Positions 612 to 60,580 of a DNA stretch of 64,000 bases are shown in pieces. Below the pieces are notes generated by a model that ran no database searches, was not told the origin of the DNA, and saw only the letters and a list, made by a program, of their open reading frames with translations. The position numbers and the translations under genes were made by a program. The stretch's first letter is position 1. The number at the start of each line of letters is the position of its first letter. The DNA is from Hydrolagus affinis (Eukaryota). The stretch is taken from the NCBI GenBank assembly GCA_012026655.1, contig JAAILG010000887.1, forward strand, positions 1 through 64,000. The letters are read 5' to 3'.

Positions 612-1212
612 GATATTTTCCTAAGGAAATGAGTCAAATAATCCTTTCAATTGATACATTTAAAGTGTATTGTATTTCGCATCTTTAACTGCCTCCTACC
701 TCACCTTCGGCTCCGAGTCTCATCTAAAGTCATCTAACATTGCCTCAAAAGTTTCTGTGAATTTATTCAATAATTTAACTGACTGCCTGAGGTAGGAGGT
801 GACCTTGGGTCGTTTGATTGAAGTTCAGCTGGGACAAGTAGAAGGCAGCTGGTTGCATTGGAAGCTGCAGGCAAAGAAGACAGATCAATATTGTGGAACT
901 CCTGTTCGTAACTTTTTTTTTTTTAGCACTTTAAGGATGTTTTAAAGATAGTTTTCTGTGGTAGAAGAGGAAAGTTGGATGTTGAATGACCTTGACTTAC
1001 TCCGTGCCTTGCTAAGTCGGGTATTTTTTTTTGGGCGAATCGCATTTTAACGCTGAACATGTTGTATTAAAATTTAATGCATTAAAAACTATTAGTGCAG
1101 TTAATGGCGTCTGTGTATTCTGCTGCACGTTCGGAATAATCTTAGCTGTCACATTTTCAAGTTTTAATTTGTGACTTATTCAAAGAATAATGTCAGCGAC
1201 AGTATTGGGAGA

Positions 1213-1436
1213 AAAAAACACACAAAATACGACAGATGTTGGGAATCTGAAACAAAAACAAAAGTTGCTGGGGAAACTCAGCAGGTCAAGCGGCATCCAT
1301 GGAGAAAGGAAAAGGAGTCAACGTTTCGGGTCTACAACCCTTCGTCAGGACAAAGACCTGAAACGTTGACCCCTTTTCTTTTCTCCATGGATGCTGCTTG
1401 ACCTGCTGAGTTTCCCCAGCAACTTTTGTTTTTGTT
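1213..1436. mobile_element. Palindromic non-autonomous Penelope-like (pLTR-derived) element with 14-bp TSD
   Basis: 83-bp inverted arms (1251-1333 / 1354-1436, 4 mismatches), flanked by the direct repeat ACAGTATTGGGAGA at 1199-1212 and 1437-1450. A hammerhead core lies in the centre. Confidence 0.8.
1317..1351 (-). ncRNA. Minimal type I hammerhead ribozyme motif (Penelope-type)
   Basis: Minus strand: GTC-CTGACGA-A-GGGT tgtag ACCC-GAAAC GTT-GAC. It has both catalytic boxes, stem I GTC/GAC, stem II GGGT/ACCC, and palindromic AACGTT in place of stem III. Confidence 0.65.
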
Positions 1437-3102
1437 ACAGTATTGGGAGAGACTGTTCAGTCCATTGAACCAACATGAAACTTGGTTCCTCCACTGAACT
1501 AATAGCTCTGACCCCATGCCCCACTCTTTCCCCTGTACACTTTATCATTTGCACATAGTATTACATAGAATGTCCGATAGAGATCCGAGCTGGTGCAAAC
1601 GCCACACCCAGGCCTCCACACCTCGGAATCCCCATCTCCCACACTCATTATTCCCTTCTCCCTCAAGTCCACACCAACTTTCCTTATTTCTATGTTTATT
1701 CCGGCCGTACCTTATTCCAAGGTAATATGGAGACACACAAACCATGATAGGGGAAGTGTTTCATGCACATTGACTACTGACCCTATAGTTTGAAATACCT
1801 GCTGCGTTGAATGTAATGGGAAATCTGGATTCCCTCCCACCAGTAACTTTGATGTCCGGTTACCCACACAGAAATACTCAATTTTCTGTCTTATTAAACA
1901 CAACAAGAACGACAACAAAATTACAAACACCAATTGAAGATACAATCGGGAGGCCGAGCCATGAATATTCCACAGGACGCTGTGAATATTCGTGCGTATT
2001 GAAGTTTTCTGCTGGGCAGAAGTGGGACTCCAGCAAGGAGAGCGTTTGAAGCAAACTACAGGGCTTGAAGTGCCAGGCAAAGCCAGTGCTTCTCCGCAGA
2101 TATATAAATAAGAAGGGTTGGGCATGTATCCTTTGTGCTGCATGCAAATAAGTTGCTGCTTCCTGATTTGTGCAGAAAAGTCACCACAGGAATCTAATGG
2201 TGCTTTGCCTCCATAATTGCCATTTGTGGTACTTGAATTCAAGATGAATGTTATATTGCATTAGCCTCATTGGCTTATGTAAATTATACCTAATTAACTA
2301 TTTATGCATTCCCTCTTTTCAACACAACCGGCATATATCCTTCAAGAAAGGATTTGCACAAAGGCGGTTTGTATTTAAATTGTGAAGTCAATTTCCTATC
2401 CAATATTAAGCCTTATTAACAATTCAGTAGCCTGTCTCCATCAAGGAAGGGTGAGTTACCCCCAATATTGTGCGAAGACAGAAGACGCAACTATGAAGCG
2501 ATCTATAAAACCACTGAAATATATTTGTTTGTCGCTTTGGTTTTGTTCCATTGTTTATTAACCCTTGTTGCCCGACTATTTCGCTGTCAAAACCTCCGTC
2601 AGCCAAAGGCTACTCTCTACTTTTTTTTTGGGGGGTGGGGGGGGGGTGGGGAGGGAAAGCAAACAGAAGACATCAACATGGAGTCAGTCGAAAGCACCAT
2701 GTGTCCTCTGATCACAGGGTTTGTGATGGAAACTTCAGTTCCTCCTTGTTCTCCTGTGCTGAATAATGTAGTTGGCTCAACGAGAGGTTCGCATTTTGAA
2801 TTGCTGGCAGCACTCTCCACGCTGGCAACCAGTTTGCTCAGTTGCAGAACACAACCGCAATCAGGAAGGCTCGCAGGCCCTCTGTTAAATGTCGCTGATA
2901 TACAGTACCGTCTGGTAGTAAATCATTGAAATTCATGTCCTTGAATATCACCGGCATCAATAACACTTGCACTGGGTAGCTGGGCAACAATTATTTCTTA
3001 CCCGTTTGGCATCTCAGATGATGGAAGAGGATATGTTGCGGACACGGCTTATAGGAAAAAGGAGAGACCGAGTTTCGCCTCAGTGGGCCAGTGAAAGTTG
3101 CA

Positions 3103-3355: not shown

Positions 3356-4034
3356 TATGGAGGTCACTTTGTACCACTCTGCCTGACTGTGAGGAATATC
3401 TGCTGCAAGTAATACAACATGGAAAGAGTTAAAGAGAGAGAGAAAGAGAGAGAGAGAAGGCAACTTTACTCAATTTATTTCTAATGTCCTGTTGCCGTAT
3501 TAAATGTTCTGGTTTATTAACCGGGCGCAGAGTTAATTGGTTGGAATGTTCTTTAGAGAGTTTCACTGATAAACTGTGAAGTCAGTGCAGTAACAGATTG
3601 CGCTCCCCAGAGTAGCTTTTCCCAGCAACTCATTGCTGGCGTTTTGCTTTGGAAGTTAGTTGTTAGCATTTACATTCAGCGAAGTTAGTAAGAAAGTATG
3701 TCAGTAAACAGGCAGGTACGTCAGAAACAGGTTTCCAATCGCTTAAGGATCCGATAGTAATACAGTTTGAAGATAGGCGTATGATTCCTCGAGTGCTGGC
3801 AAAGAAAAGGTTTGCATCCGAATATAAAGAGAATTGAGCGTCTCGATGTACACATACATCACGCAGGACTTTCAAAGCTAAACGCAATCACAGAAGAAAG
3901 TCAGTAATAATCTGTGTCTTTCACAGATGTGAGTCTCAAGGTACTGTAGTCACAGAAGCCAAGCTCCATTGTGAGCTACTTGGAGTTCAGCAAAGGTTAT
4001 CCTCTCAGTATAAATTCACCGTAGATTACCTTGT

Positions 4035-4372
4035 GGAATCCTGTAGCTCAGGGGTGAGAGCACTTGCCTTACAAGCGTGAGACCTGTGTTAGAATCAAGG
4101 CAGGTCAGGACGAAACCTTGGGCAAGTTTACTTACTCCACACACACACACACGCCTAATAATAATCCCTCTAAAAAAAACACAATAATAAAATCGGTCAT
4201 TTCAATCCACGACTATTTGTGGGGGACGCTGCTGTGCGCAATCAGCTGCTGTGTGTTCGCCCACAAATATACAGTCAATTCACTTTACAGTATATTCTGT
4301 GAAATGCTTTGGGACGTGTAGATGACGTGATAAGGCGCCATATCAAATGCAAGGATTATTATTATTATTATT
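4035..4372 (+). mobile_element. tRNA-derived SINE, full length
   Basis: A-box-like tagctcag, cttacaa loop, body, stem-loop and (ATT)n tail. Confidence 0.9.
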
Positions 4373-5641: not shown

Positions 5642-5741
5642 NNNNNNNNNNNNNNNNNNNNNNNNNNNNNNNNNNNNNNNNNNNNNNNNNNNNNNNNNNN
5701 NNNNNNNNNNNNNNNNNNNNNNNNNNNNNNNNNNNNNNNNN
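5642..5741. other. Assembly gap (100 N)
   Basis: Run of N. Confidence 1.
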
Positions 5742-11418: not shown

Positions 11419-11752
11419 TAATAATAATAATAATTACAATCCTTGCATTTGATGCAGCGCTTTTCACATCTTATCCACGTCTCAAAGCGCTTCACAGAAT
11501 ATACTGTAAAGTGAATTGACTGTATATTTGTGGGCGAAATGCGGCAGCCAATTGCGCACAGCAGCGTCCCCCACAAACAGTCGTGGATAGAAAATGACCA
11601 ATTTTTATGATTGTGATTTTTTTTGGACAGATTATTATCAGGCGTGTGTGTGTGGAGTGAGGAAACTTACCCAAGATTTCACTCTGATCCACCTGGATTC
11701 AAACACAGGTCTCAAGCTTGTAAGGTGAGTCTTTAACCACTGAGCTACAGGA
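11419..11752 (-). mobile_element. tRNA-derived SINE, full length
   Basis: Reverse complement of the family sequence from head to (ATT)n. Confidence 0.9.
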
Positions 11753-12560
11753 GATAATTGTTGATGATGAACCAGGCAGCCTGGGCTTCTTAGCAAGAGT
11801 TAGCAAGACTCAGAGGAGAGCGTCAACACTCTACACCAAGCAAATGGAAACCAGACTCACGTAGAGCTCCAGTTAGTTTGGTTTCGAGACTCTTAAGCAC
11901 CAGTGATGGTATTTCACACATGTCAGATCCCTCTCTGTCACAAAAAAACATATGTGATCCATCTGACGTAGCATGGGGCCTTCTGCATTTATAAAACAGA
12001 CAATGTTGTTCACTGAAAGCAATTGCTTTCACAAATAGCAAGGTTGCAGGACACCTGTGTATGGAAAATTTTCAACCTCTTTCAGATATTCTCCTTTATT
12101 TGTATTCAGTGCCTAAGCGAGTTTAAAGAAACCTTCATCTTTTGCACTATCAGCAACTGCCAGCGCTCCTTCTCCCCCCCTCTCTCTCTCTGTGTCTTTG
12201 CTAGCTAGTTCAATAAGACTGTGATGTTCGAAATATGCTCTGATATTACAGTGAGAAAGATACTTTGCTTTAATATTAACGGCTTAGAGCTAAAATAAAC
12301 AATTCAACAAATGGAAATAATTCATAAGTGTTTCACTTCTTGCTCGCCTTAGCCTTCCCTGTTCCCCTTTAAGTCAAGCACTACCGGTGACAACATTGGG
12401 AAGTGTCCTGTGAGACAACCTCATTAACACACACAATTCAATTTTCAAGATCCCTGGCATCCCACTGGATTAATGACTAAATCTTTATTGAGCTGCTTTA
12501 CGTGGTCAGATTTAACCTCCCCTCTCAGCCCCGTTATACTAATCATGTCGGCATTCATTT

Positions 12561-17437: not shown

Positions 17438-17580
17438 TGTCAAACACTTTCGTTTTAACGCAATGAAAGAATCGATCGCACTACTGTTTCCTTAAAAAAA
17501 ACAATGATTTTTTCTGTTTGTTTTGAGGAAACAGTGATGCGATCAATTCTTTAATAACATTAAAAATAAAGGATTTGACA
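17438..17580. repeat. Imperfect inverted repeat, 60-bp ungapped arms (MITE/Eulor-like hairpin)
   Basis: Arm 17438-17497 versus the reverse complement of 17521-17580: 48/60 identical, 23-nt spacer. Confidence 0.8.
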
Positions 17581-23200: not shown

Positions 23201-23239
23201 GCAATACAGAAATGCATATTACTGCACAGTAACGTTTCA

Positions 23240-23465
23240 AAAACTCAAAACCCTGCTGATGCTGGAAGTCTGAAACAAAAACAGAAATGGCTGGCAACAC
23301 CCAGCAGATGAGGCAGCATCTCTACGGAGAAAGGGAAAGTGAGTCAACATCTCGGTTCCCGCGAGCCTTCAGTTCAGACGAAGGGTTGACTCATGCTGAC
23401 TCACTTTTCCCTTCTCCATAGATGCTGCCTGACCTGCTAGTGTTCCCAGCCATTTCTCTTTTTCT
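23240..23465. mobile_element. Older, degenerate palindromic copy of the Penelope-like element
   Basis: Inverted arms (gaaatggctgg-aacac...gcagcatct...gagtca / tgactcac...agatgctgcc...gtgttcccagccatttc) with a decayed gacgaagggt centre. Confidence 0.7.
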
Positions 23466-23524
23466 TTCCCGTTCACTGTTAAATGGAAATAGAATTTCAG
23501 AAAAAGAAAATGATTTCGCTTGTT

Positions 23525-26599: not shown

Positions 26600-26907
26600 A
26601 TAATAATAACAATAATCCTTGCAATTGTTCTAGATGTGAAAAGCGCTTCACAGAGTATACTGTAAAGTGAATTGACTGTATATTTGTGGGTGAAACGAGG
26701 CAGCCAATTGCGCACAGCAGTGTCCCACAAACAGTTGTGGATTGAAATGACCAATTGTGTTTTTTCTGGACAGATTATTATTAGGTGTGTGTGTGTGTGT
26801 GGAATAAGGAAACTTGCCCAAGGTTTCACCCCTGACCTGCCTGGATTCGAAACACATGTCTCACGCTTGTAAGGCGAGTGCTCTCACTAGTGAGTTACAG
26901 GAGCTCC
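26600..26907 (-). mobile_element. tRNA-derived SINE, near full length
   Basis: Reverse complement of the family sequence. Confidence 0.9.
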
Positions 26908-27340
26908 ATAGGGGGGGTATTGTGATCAGCAAGCAATGGGATGTAATGGCTGGAACCCCTTCAAGGAACAACTTAACAGTAAAGCACAAAGGAAACAAAC
27001 TCGGAGGTTCACTGGCTCGCCTCCCGTTCCTGCTCTACACTGATCGATCCCTCTCTTTGGTGAGTATTGATAACCCATACGAGAAGGTTACACAAAACAC
27101 TGATCTTGAAAGCGAGATCCTACTGTTGCTTCACTCCTGTTTGCTTCACTGAACAATCTTCCTCGATAGTCATTTTACTTCTATGATTGATTCTCGATAT
27201 TACAACTAAAGGCGTTCACGGCAATATTAACTGTATCATTGCCTTGTTTTCGCAATTGTTTTACACTAAGGTCTTTTCCTGGATGTACACAGTGCCTCGG
27301 ACAAATCTCCCACGCGGCCATTAATTTGGTCAGCTTGCTA

Positions 27341-34880: not shown

Positions 34881-35194
34881 TATAATAATAATCCTTGCAT
34901 TTGACATAGCGCTTTTCACGTCTTATCGACGTCTCAAAGCGCTTCACGGAATAGACTGTAAAGTGAATTGACAGTATATTTGTGGGGGCGAAACGTGGCA
35001 GCCAATTGCGCACAGCAGTGTCCCCACAAACAGTTGTGGATTGAAATGACCAAATTTTATTATTGCGGGTTTTTTTGGACGTATTATTAGGAGTGAAGTA
35101 AGGAAACTTGCCCAAGGCTTTGCCCTGATCTGCCTGGATTCGAACACAGGTCTCACGTTTGTAAGACGAGTGCTCTAACCACTGAGCTGCAGGA
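34881..35194 (-). mobile_element. tRNA-derived SINE, full length
   Basis: Reverse complement of the family sequence. Confidence 0.9.
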
Positions 35195-35397
35195 TATTAG
35201 ATAGCGTCTTTCAAGTCGGGAGGACATCCCTAGGTGCTGGATAGTCAGCCTAATCCTATCCTTTCACAGTGGTGCATTCCCATCAGTGAATGTTGACTCC
35301 TGATCAGGAGCTGGAACCATGGCTCCTCCCAAACCTTGTACCATACGGGCAATCTTAACAGCTTCCTTTCCTGCCACTCTGGTTCATATCATAATGT

Positions 35398-35721
35398 GGA
35401 GCTCCTGTAGCTCAGTGGTTAGAGCACTCGCCTTACAAGCGTGAGACCTGTGTTCGAATCCAGGCAGATCAGGGTGAAACCTTAGGCAAGTTTCCTTATT
35501 CCACACACACACCTAATAATAATCCGTCCCCAAAAAAAACCCCACAATAATGAAAATTGGTCACTTCAATCCATGACAGTTTATGGGACGCTGCTGTGCG
35601 TAATTGGCTGCCGCGTTTCGCCCACAAATACACGGTTAATTCACTTTACAGTATATTCTGTGAAGTACTTTGAGAAGTCGTTAAAATGTGAATATCAAAT
35701 GCAAGGATTATTGTTATTATT
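35398..35721 (+). mobile_element. tRNA-derived SINE, full length (best-preserved head)
   Basis: A box tagctcagtgg, B box gttcgaatcc, cgc-cttacaa-gcg anticodon-like arm. Confidence 0.92.
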
Positions 35722-37867: not shown

Positions 37868-38279
37868 ACTTGATGAAGAGGGCATCAATACACAGCCTTA
37901 CCTCTCTCCACCCAGCTGCCATGCATGCAGACTACCAGTGGATGGACCAGGATCAGAACACTTTACCTTCAGTCAAGCAATGTCTACTGTTATGCTTTTT
38001 TCCACCTTTAAAGATTGCTAGTGCATTTTCACAAGAATTAGCACATTCTAAAGTTTAAAGTTTACCCAGACTAGACCTGCACCCACCTTGAACTTTGCTT
38101 TAAAAGAAGTGCGTCTTTAGTAACAGCTTCCAATATGTTAAATTTAACTAATCAGACATTTTTAAATCATATTGTGCTGAACTAATTCACTGCTAGTGTA
38201 GTCACTGCACATTTATAGGAAAAACGCGGAAGCCATGACAAGGTTTTACCAATAGCCTGAGGTGAACAACTATTTTAGT

Positions 38280-38381
38280 TGAAACAGAAGTCGCTGAGAA
38301 CACACAGCAGATCAAGCAGCATCTATGGAGAAAGGAAAGTGAGTCAACGTTTCGGGTCCACGGCCCTTCGTCAGAACTCAC
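38280..38381 (-). mobile_element. Single arm of the same Penelope-like element, with an intact hammerhead motif at 38339-38381
   Basis: Similar to 1251-1350. Minus strand: GTGAGTT-CTGACGA-AGGGccgtggaCCC-GAAAC GTT-GACTCAC, with a 7-bp stem I. Confidence 0.7.
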
Positions 38382-38999
38382 CCTGCTCACCTGCGTTTTG
38401 TTTATAACTGGCTTAGTTGGGAGTTTTGGAGGAATATTGGCAACACCAAGACGCTGAGCAATACTTATGGTCTACTAGGGCTCCAGTTTGACGAGGGAAT
38501 TCCATTCTCATACCCCCACTTTAAGCACCTTCAGAAATAGCCACTGATTTACCTCAGTGAAATTCCTGGCACATTGCAATCCCCTGTGCTTATCACACTA
38601 TGATTCCCTGCAGTCTCATTTGCTTGTCGAAACAACCCATTATCTACCTACCCACCTTTAGCTAGAGCACAATGCCAATTGCCAATTATTATTTTGCTGT
38701 CCTTGCGGTTGGCAGTCTCTCTGCAAATTGCTCTCTCTTCCTCTACTTCCACCAGCCCCTTAACCAATAATTGCGCTCATTGACTCATCTTCATTGGTTT
38801 ACCTTTGTGAACCATTCAATGCTCTCCACTCCATCGCGTGTTCACTTTGTATACACGTGGATATTTTCGCAAAACTAATAACATTTCACTATCTGCCTAT
38901 GGTGAGAACTGCAGTGACAGTTTTTGCATCACATACCGTATAGCATTTTCTCCCTCGATCTTATTCCTGCTGATTAGAATTGTTTTAACTGCCTGTTTT

Positions 39000-51471: not shown

Positions 51472-51791
51472 AGTAATAATGATAATTCTTGCATTTGATA
51501 TAGCGCTTTTCACGTCTTCTAGACGTCTCAAAGCGCTTCACAGAATATACTGTAAAGTGAATTGAGTTAAAAGTATAGTGTATGTGGACGAAATACGGCA
51601 GCCAATTGCGCACAGCAGTGTCCCATCAACACTTGTGGATAGAAATGATTGATTTATTATATATATATTTGCGGGATTATTATCAGGAGTGTGGAGTAAG
51701 GAAACGTGCCCAAGGTTTCGCCCTGCCTGGAATCGAACCCAGGTCTCTCGCTTGTAAGGCGAATGCTCTAACCACTTGAGCTACAGGACTC
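51472..51791 (-). mobile_element. tRNA-derived SINE, full length, intronic
   Basis: Reverse complement of the family sequence. Confidence 0.9.
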
Positions 51792-59448: not shown

Positions 59449-60035
59449 CAACAACAACAACAACAAAATTACACTTGTGTAGAGCCTTACACATCTAGAG
59501 GTTGGGGGCAGAGTGGCTGAAGGCTCGCCTGCCAATGATGGAGTGGTTGGGTTGGGGGACTTGGAGCAGGCCAGGGGGCTTTGAAGGTGAGGACTAAGAT
59601 CTTGAATTGAATCATTGAATCCTCTGGTTGATGGGGAGCCAATGGAGTCGGGCGAGAATGGGGGAAATGGGATCATAGAGCTTGGAGCGGTAGAGGACAC
59701 GGGCCATAGAGTTCTGGATTATCTGCAGCCTATGGAGGGAGGAGTTGGGAAGGCCAATAAGCAGGGCGAGGCTGGATGTGATGAAGGCTTGAATGAGGGT
59801 TTCAGAGGCCTGAGGGATGAGGTAGTGGTGCAGTCGGGCAATATTGCGGAGGTGAGGCAAGGCAGAGCGAGTCATTGCTCGACTGTGGGGGAGGAAAGAC
59901 GCTTGAGGATCAAACAAGATACCTGGGTTCCCGACTGGCTTGGTGAGGTGGAGTGTGCAACCATGGAGGTTGACGCTACCAGTGCCTGATGAGCGAAGGA
60001 GGGCCTCGGTCTTGTGGACATTCAGCTGGGCAGAA
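59449..60035 (-). mobile_element. L2 LINE ORF2 C-terminal remnant
   Basis: LNVHKTEALL...HLRNIARL...LIQAFITS...LQIIQNSMARVL...ISPILARLHWLPINQRIQ is the classic L2 post-RT region; (CAA)n tail. Confidence 0.92.
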
Positions 60036-60580
60036 CACTTTATAGCCTGACGTTTAGGAATTTGAACATATTTGAATATGTTTTGGGTAGAATTCGCGCA
60101 TTGAGATGGATGCTGTCCAAGTATCGCTATACCAATCCACTGTTGACTTGAGAATGGAGCTGCTTCTGAAGTTAAAGCAGTTTTTGTGTGTGTTTGGTTC
60201 TGTATACTCACACTGGACCTCTGATAATCTCAACAAATATAATTTTGACTTGACCACACCACCCACCCATAACTCTGACTTGTTCCCATAGATTTCTGGC
60301 GCAATGCGTAACATTGTTGTTCCCTGTCAGTAAAGACCTTTTTCCTTACGTGTGGCAAACCTGACAGATAAACCAGGGAGCGCTTATTTGTTTGTGGTCC
60401 TCCAGTTTGGCTAATCCACCTACTTCAGTCAACTCCCTCAATTAAATCCACCTCTGCACCTCTTCTCCCAGTCGAGCTGGTTTGTTATTTTCACGTCGAG
60501 CTAAAAGATTTCAGCAGAGTTTAACCCAGCCTCGATGATCATTTTCTATCAAGTGTTTCACGAACAATCGTTGGTGTACT

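Follow-up and report, generated by a model that had tools for sequence, protein, structure and literature searches.

A 224-bp fold-back insert at 1213-1436 of the window (the whole stretch of DNA analysed, 64 kb) is most probably one insertion product of a very abundant, endonuclease-bearing family among the Penelope-like elements (PLEs), both halves of which were heavily 5'-truncated and laid down by two-strand priming. The insertion pattern is already known for PLEs (PMC3846280; PMC8557442), and the insert is a real feature of this known kind. The single locus matters little in itself, being one among very many truncated PLE ends; its value lies in marking a mechanism. The anatomy of the insert, the abundance of its family, the shared outer ends, the private centre and the masking of the hammerhead by the second arm were computed here; the insertion pattern, the cutting and extension of both strands and the two start sites that bound the tail come from published papers.

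Anatomy of the insert and of its copies in the window

The insert is flanked by two copies of a 14-bp target-site duplication (TSD; sequence unit ACAGTATTGGGAGA), at 1199-1212 and 1437-1450, which agree at 14 of 14 positions. When 63,670 offsets were scanned for an exact repeat of at least 14 bases lying no more than 5 nt from each end of a span of 224 bp, this site alone emerged in the window (11 adjacent offsets positive, all at 1199-1450). Inside the insert, 1251-1333 and 1354-1436 form inverted arms of 83 bp with four differences, at 1292/1395, 1308/1379, 1316/1371 and 1328/1359, every one of them a transition. The perfect TSD and the four transitions are as the first-pass annotation had described them, and its view of the insert as a retroposed unit with a TSD is supported. 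A repeat search stretches the arms to 87 bp because three of the first four letters of the right TSD also match the next letters of the element, a match at 1437 that may possibly reflect priming microhomology. The predicted hairpin of the insert has a free energy of -151 kcal/mol (z -20.7).

The two halves of the hairpin are unequal. On the minus strand, one arm carries a 3' tail of 31-38 nt at 1213-1250 (the family outer end lies at about 1216-1223), which falls outside the inverted arms and is unpaired in the predicted fold; this tail, 38 nt long in the insert and with no pairing partner, is a feature that the first description did not include. The tailed arm itself (1251-1351, minus strand) is the 3' end of a PLE-type pLTR and is 5'-truncated 3 nt upstream of a hammerhead core. 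The tailless inverted arm (1354-1436, plus strand) is 5'-truncated inside stem II and holds only the 3' half of the hammerhead. Between the arms lies a junction of two bases, 1352-1353, that is nearly private to this copy. A search of 900-1800 found no direct repeat of the unit.

We further note two other copies of the family in the window; the 1213-1436 insertion is the least decayed of the three. An older fold-back copy at 23236-23468 shares the tail of 1213-1250, and its arms differ at 16 of 89 sites; no TSD is recognisable around it. Its tailed arm ends within the 5' core of the hammerhead, at the equivalent of 1343, while its tailless arm (23371-23468), from which GAAA has been lost, goes on to the equivalent of 1351. 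Neither arm contains the other, and hence neither was copied from the other. The third copy (38281-38405, minus strand) consists of a tailless arm with an intact hammerhead core at 38346-38374, which also ends at the equivalent of 1351, followed by about 27 nt that are perhaps a short inverted tail piece, a weak match that is reached by 10 of 2000 shuffles against the 23239 tail and by 302 of 2000 against the 1213 tail. A possible decayed TSD at 38268 and 38406 (11 of 14 positions) is likewise weak. The three copies have three different centres, and in every one of them the longer arm breaks off 3-4 nt short of the hammerhead core. The window search yielded five single arms in all, with no further copy or longer form of the family. 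The repeat looks like some of those in cartilaginous fish.

The family in public sequencing runs

Of 14 public runs listed, four (X1, X7, X10 and X13) were aligned to 900-1799 at 80% likeness, and two with small shares (X11 and X12) were left out. X7 is labelled organism A and X10 organism B, and X13 is RNA from a poly(A) single-cell library; no RNA run is listed for the stretch itself. The alignments comprise 4,186, 12,335 and 12,759 contigs for X1, X7 and X10 and 4,339 RNA reads for X13, nearly all of them on the insert. In X1, depths there add up to about 10^5, compared with 3-5 over the flanks; the corresponding values in X7 and X10 are about 2 x 10^6 and 40-64. Summed depth is no copy number; we read it as a family size of the order of 10^4, consistent with three copies in 64 kb.

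Each of the four runs shows an accumulation of loose record ends before 1220 and 1223, and the three contig runs show another before 1244-1251; these clusters are two shared outer ends about 30 nt apart. At the centre, depth falls from 85,041 at 1333 to 54 at 1353 in X1, from 1,388,315 to 1,152 in X7, from 1,409,506 to 2,785 in X10 and from 1,354 to 10 reads in X13, that is, to 0.06%, 0.08%, 0.2% and 0.7%, respectively. Among the 15 joints listed of 70, all have different coordinates. The outer ends are thus common to the family and the centre is not. The first-pass annotation had named a lack of copies with the same ends as a finding that would refute its reading, and at the centre this is what is seen: the outer ends are shared, but the centre varies between copies.

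The insertion site itself is also present in other samples. One of its junctions is bridged by a record in each contig run (record 1 in X1, record 24 in X7 and record 10 in X10), with flanks that differ from the window by roughly 1-3%, and the orthologous copy in X10 has a left TSD with one substitution and one extra A. No record crosses the whole insert in the four runs, and no empty-site joint occurs among the joints listed. The site is filled in X1, X7 (organism A) and X10 (organism B), and the insertion is therefore older than the split between those samples. This does not agree with the earlier view of the family as young.

Records that continue behind 1348 (91, 311, 229 and 571 in the four runs) have a common start, and the 30-letter consensus behind 1348 is much alike in X1 and X13. 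The presence of common sequence there in all four runs indicates that part of the family is longer on the 5' side of the hammerhead. This family sequence, when read on the minus strand, has a pyrimidine-rich tract whose last letters, CAG, stand two bases before the core. Judged by its letters, the tract looks like a 3' splice site, which could bear on where the arms stop; helix I is the point at which an intron ends in D. virilis (PMC4209133).

In the RNA run (X13), reads fall on both strands of the element and 79% continue into other sequence. There are no reads on the flanks of the locus and no pile-up of starts or ends, in a library that may not show such ends, and we count the run neither for nor against cleavage. 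Separately, 111 RNA reads continue behind 1351 into an apparent second hammerhead core in the opposite direction, with an agreement of just 0.45; these look like transcribed back-to-back two-hammerhead fold-backs at other loci.

A minimal hammerhead masked by the second arm

The minus strand at 1317-1351 holds a predicted minimal type I hammerhead that lacks stem III and has instead a palindromic AACGUU. Read 5' to 3', it comprises a stem I strand (1351-1349), the core CUGACGA (1348-1342), an extra A (1341), a stem II of 4-5 bp (1340-1336 with 1332-1328), GAAAC (1327-1323), the cleavage triplet GUU (1322-1320) and the second stem I strand (1319-1317). Stem I has just 3 bp because the tailed arm is cut off 3 nt before the core; this short stem and the GUU triplet were absent from the first description. 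A strict hammerhead descriptor matches once in the window, at 1317-1351, versus none in 100 dinucleotide shuffles, and a loose descriptor matches twice versus a mean of 0.41 in 100 shuffles. The motif reported earlier at this position is thereby borne out by descriptor. Rfam, which had also been suggested as a check, gave no hammerhead match at E up to 10 or at gathering cut-offs. Its only matches on the insert are microRNA-hairpin models at 22-45 bits, below gathering scores, which we rejected as generic hairpin scores.

The motif belongs to the kind of minimal hammerhead described in metazoan PLEs (PMC4209133), as had been claimed for it. Like these, it has CUGANGA, an additional nucleotide ahead of G10.1, a pair between G10.1 and C11.1 and palindromic 15.2-16.2, and it lacks helix III. 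It differs from them in its 3-bp stem I, its 4-5-bp stem II, its GUU triplet and the masking of the motif by an antisense arm. In the same source, minimal hammerheads occur as thousands of single motifs in truncated PLEs, fish included, some of them close together on opposite strands, and the single minimal hammerhead tested there did not cleave (PMC4209133).

In a minus-strand transcript of the insert, the complementary arm lies 5' of the ribozyme. Transcripts that begin at 1436 or 1500 were folded as growing prefixes, at equilibrium and not as a kinetic simulation. None of the prefixes gave stem II pairing above 0.03, and arm pairing is 0.998-0.999 once GUU is transcribed. Without the second arm, short transcripts give stem II pairing of 0.98-1.0 and stem I pairing of 0.73-0.95. 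The blocking arm is made before the ribozyme, so that co-transcriptional folding would turn the hammerhead off. The first-pass annotation was right that the second arm sequesters the GAAAC half of the core; its further proposal that co-transcriptional folding permits cleavage is not supported, as the order of the arms is the reverse of what such a switch needs. In these models, the hammerhead of the 1213-1436 copy is truncated and fully masked by the antisense arm.

Folding of two molecules predicts a minimum in which a palindromic helix III is absent, and only -1.7 to -3.5 kcal/mol is predicted for the weak ACGU duplex. Since the catalytic core lies outside the program's model, dimer folding is uninformative here. 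The GUU site is read through in both arms, which indicates that the template RNA was uncleaved, as in the anole element (PMC11167929).

A control family with the same layout

Relatives were sought by motif in other contigs. The exact family motif has no match in metagenome contigs and a degenerate motif none in viral contigs. A relaxed motif gave at least 118 metagenome loci (7 of 64 parts scanned) and 23 prokaryote loci, and blastn at E 1e-3 matches none of these 141 loci to the 1213-1436 element. We used as a control the largest family among the metagenome loci listed, which has 81 loci; the other 60 loci are outside the architecture counts. The control family is biased because each locus was required to have one intact hammerhead. 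Four pairs among the 81 loci are likely same-site duplicates, and none among the 28 that were counted.

An inverted arm is present in 37 of the 81 control loci, and 28 of these have both flanks. The tail is on the sense arm in nine of the 28, on the inverted arm in 18, on both arms in none and on neither in one, so that exactly one tail is present in 27 of 28 loci; were tails independent, the chance of this pattern would be near 1e-7 (hand arithmetic). In 21 of these 27, by hand count, each arm has sequence that is missing from its partner. A TSD-like repeat of at least 11 nt flanks 20 of the 28 loci versus 0 of 195 mismatched pairs, and TSD length is about 11-16 bp by eye. Inner ends in the control family are scattered from -1 to beyond -378, with two of 28 within 10 nt of the core. 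That a second family has the same layout indicates that the fold-back architecture is generic and not particular to the 1213-1436 insert.

A long copy of the control family (L037) runs into a GIY-YIG-like frame at E 6e-4, below the Pfam cutoff, and loci of other hammerhead families (L061 and L021) have GIY-YIG frames above the cutoff with the hammerhead downstream; these three are the GIY-YIG-like frames among ten scanned. For the family of the insert, no RT or GIY-YIG ORF was found in the window or through the metagenome, viral and prokaryote motif scans, in which no family member matched. We infer that the family has or had such an RT/GIY-YIG ORF.

Three further observations were made among these loci. 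In L037 (1660-2073, plus strand), and also in L005, L010, L017 and L049, the upstream frame reaches its stop within the hammerhead, 33-36 nt beyond the first base of the core. In L051, which belongs to the hammerhead family of another host, the CUGA core is the exact pivot of the inverted arm (about 2512-2545, minus strand). On prokaryote contigs, relaxed-motif matches recur in pairs with similar flanks (L119/L129 and L135/L138); these are possibly bacterial hammerheads or repeats.

Relation to known retroelements

PLE insertions often have an inverted 5'-truncated copy at their 5' end and a tail of 30-40 bp at one end only (PMC8557442; PMC8969392). In rotifer PLEs, an inverted pLTR is accompanied by a 31-bp tail and TSDs of 8-10 bp (PMC3846280), and in Drosophila copies the inverted repeats vary in size (PMC2377424). 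The insert has the features of such complex insertions of endonuclease-bearing (EN+) PLEs: a minimal hammerhead near the 3' end, a head-to-head inverted 5'-truncated copy, one tail of 30-40 nt, a TSD around the unit, and 5' truncation and inverted repeats that vary between copies (PMC8557442; PMC3846280; PMC2377424). It differs in that its halves are just 83-139 nt long and hold no ORF sequence, and in its TSD of 14 bp versus 8-10 bp in rotifers.

The green anole Poseidon element PAc suggests how such a structure could form. Both strands are cut and extended by its protein, a predicted dimer that begins synthesis at two sites delimiting the tail and works from uncleaved RNA (PMC11167929). Two start sites, both strands and uncleaved RNA would together yield one tailed and one tailless arm. 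The hammerhead of PAc overlaps the ORF start, unlike here, and the step from double priming to a fold-back is drawn by us from that work (PMC11167929).

With the non-LTR retrozymes of animals, the insert shares its non-coding nature, a type I hammerhead, kinship with PLE pLTRs and a TSD of more than 4 bp (PMC7229834). Those elements are head-to-tail tandems with a hammerhead per unit and a circular RNA, whereas the insert has one head-to-head inversion and one full, masked motif. The canonical retrozyme hammerhead has a helix I of about 6 bp and a helix III; the motif at 1317-1351 has a 3-bp stem I and no helix III.

In the literature searched, which covers few subscription papers, we found nothing on Penelope hairpin retrotransposons of sharks and no title on PLE mechanism that concerns twin priming or inversion.

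Proposed insertion by two priming events and its alternatives

We propose the following course for the insertion. The PLE protein would cut the target in a staggered fashion, about 14 nt apart, and prime reverse transcription on both strands. On one strand, synthesis would start at the outer start site and give the tailed arm; on the other, it would start about 35 nt further in and give the tailless arm. Both cDNAs would end early and be joined head-to-head, and gap filling would create the TSD. The hairpin would arise anew with each insertion and would not itself be the mobile unit, and the hammerhead would be a passenger of the pLTR, copied from uncleaved RNA. It is likely that the two arms derive from two priming events, one per cut strand. 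A single tail per insertion, as in 27 of 28 control loci, together with arms that in many cases are not nested one in the other, is the expected trace of two priming events at the two published start sites.

One feature speaks against plain random truncation within this course of events: the near-constant end of the longer arm in the three window copies, versus two of 28 control loci with an inner end within 10 nt of the core. Also against the proposal as a whole are the negative ORF search, the lack of an empty-site joint among those listed and the self-priming put forward in PMC3846280. As to the arm ends, insertion could involve two priming events on a template that is itself a short non-autonomous RNA of about 140 nt, a SINE-like PLE derivative whose 5' end lies immediately ahead of the hammerhead; alternatively, RT could meet a strong stop in the hammerhead region. 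In either case the longer arm would be near-fixed and the shorter would vary. We consider this improbable. Besides the window copies, it draws on four X10 joints, among 12 rows listed of 48, that leave at 1348 with just 2-7 letters before the inverted arm where up to 40 could be given, and on the agreement of loose ends behind 1348, whose values of 0.42-0.52 are similarly low to those of true ends (0.38-0.57). However, the sample is small; the pile-up at 1348 arises in part because the 1213-1436 copy has a minority base at 1349; common sequence continues behind 1348 in all four runs, which means that part of the family is longer; self-cleavage at 1320 cannot create a 5' end at about 1352; and the inner ends of the control family extend over the wide range given above.

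A bolder formulation, which we regard as doubtful, is that the hammerhead marks a fixed 5' limit of RT. Either the amplifying RNA would be about 140 nt, made up of the hammerhead, the pLTR end and the tail, or the ribozyme fold would act as an RT stop and not as a cleaver; a dimeric PLE enzyme would copy from both cut strands and make a new fold-back at each insertion. If this were true, two-strand priming, and likewise a role of the PLE hammerhead other than cleavage, could be read off naturally from thousands of copies in the genome. A stop before the hammerhead, if genome-wide, would offer a testable handle on what PLE hammerheads do.

In the model of the first-pass annotation it is instead the 224-nt hairpin in its entirety that moves as a unit, forming a young, non-autonomous, retrozyme-like family in which the order of folding switches cleavage. 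The clean TSD and the mere four differences between the arms are in its favour, as are the minority family alleles carried by both arms at 1261/1426, 1289/1398 and 1314/1373, which indicate a single subfamily as the source of both arms. At 1353, depth still exceeds that of the flanks by a factor of about 10-40, and hence a few similar centres may exist. We nevertheless find movement as a unit very unlikely: the centre has less than 1% of the family depth, the joints vary, and the other window copies pivot elsewhere. The site is common to organisms A and B, and the blocking arm is transcribed first. Retrozymes are tandem units, which they need in order to form circles (PMC7229834; bioRxiv 10.64898/2026.07.22.740005), and the insert has one hammerhead and no tandem unit, so that the label "retrozyme-like" is not supported either.

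A single priming event followed by snap-back or self-priming, in which the first cDNA or an antisense template would serve to make the second arm, is highly improbable as the origin of the inversion. In the 1213-1436 copy the tailless arm does lie wholly inside the tailed arm, the minority alleles are common to both, and self-priming on an antisense template has been proposed for rotifer PLEs from palindromes at inverted junctions (PMC3846280). Yet neither arm contains the other in the copy at 23236-23468 or in most of the control loci, and snap-back by itself leaves unexplained why the second arm has a fixed end about 35 nt from the end of the first. The same pattern of tails and arms that is expected of two priming events argues against snap-back copying.

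A MITE-type DNA transposon or a microRNA hairpin, to which the long inverted arms and the Rfam microRNA models might point, can practically be dismissed, as the Rfam scores are all far below gathering, the inverted arms stop short of the left end by the 38-nt tail, the TSD is 14 bp, the centre is variable and the hammerhead is of PLE type.

Other features of the window

An assembly gap of 100 N occupies 5642-5741. A stop-free frame of 205 aa at 59612-60229 (minus strand) has no Pfam match at E 0.01; we take it to resemble the C-terminal remnant of a LINE RT of CR1/L2 type. A second hairpin, at 17438-17580, has 66-nt arms that are 80% complementary and an 11-nt loop; it is unrelated to the PLE family, has no hammerhead match and is possibly an old MITE. 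We also note a SINE-like repeat, about 300 bp long, that has a tRNA head and an AT-rich tail; it gives 35 blastn matches in the window and eight tRNA-like heads by Rfam. Examples found by blastn are at 35290-35700, 34915-35194, 4032-4317, 11463-11775, 26640-26908 and 51509-51788, and several copies stand in close inverted pairs, probably through density alone.
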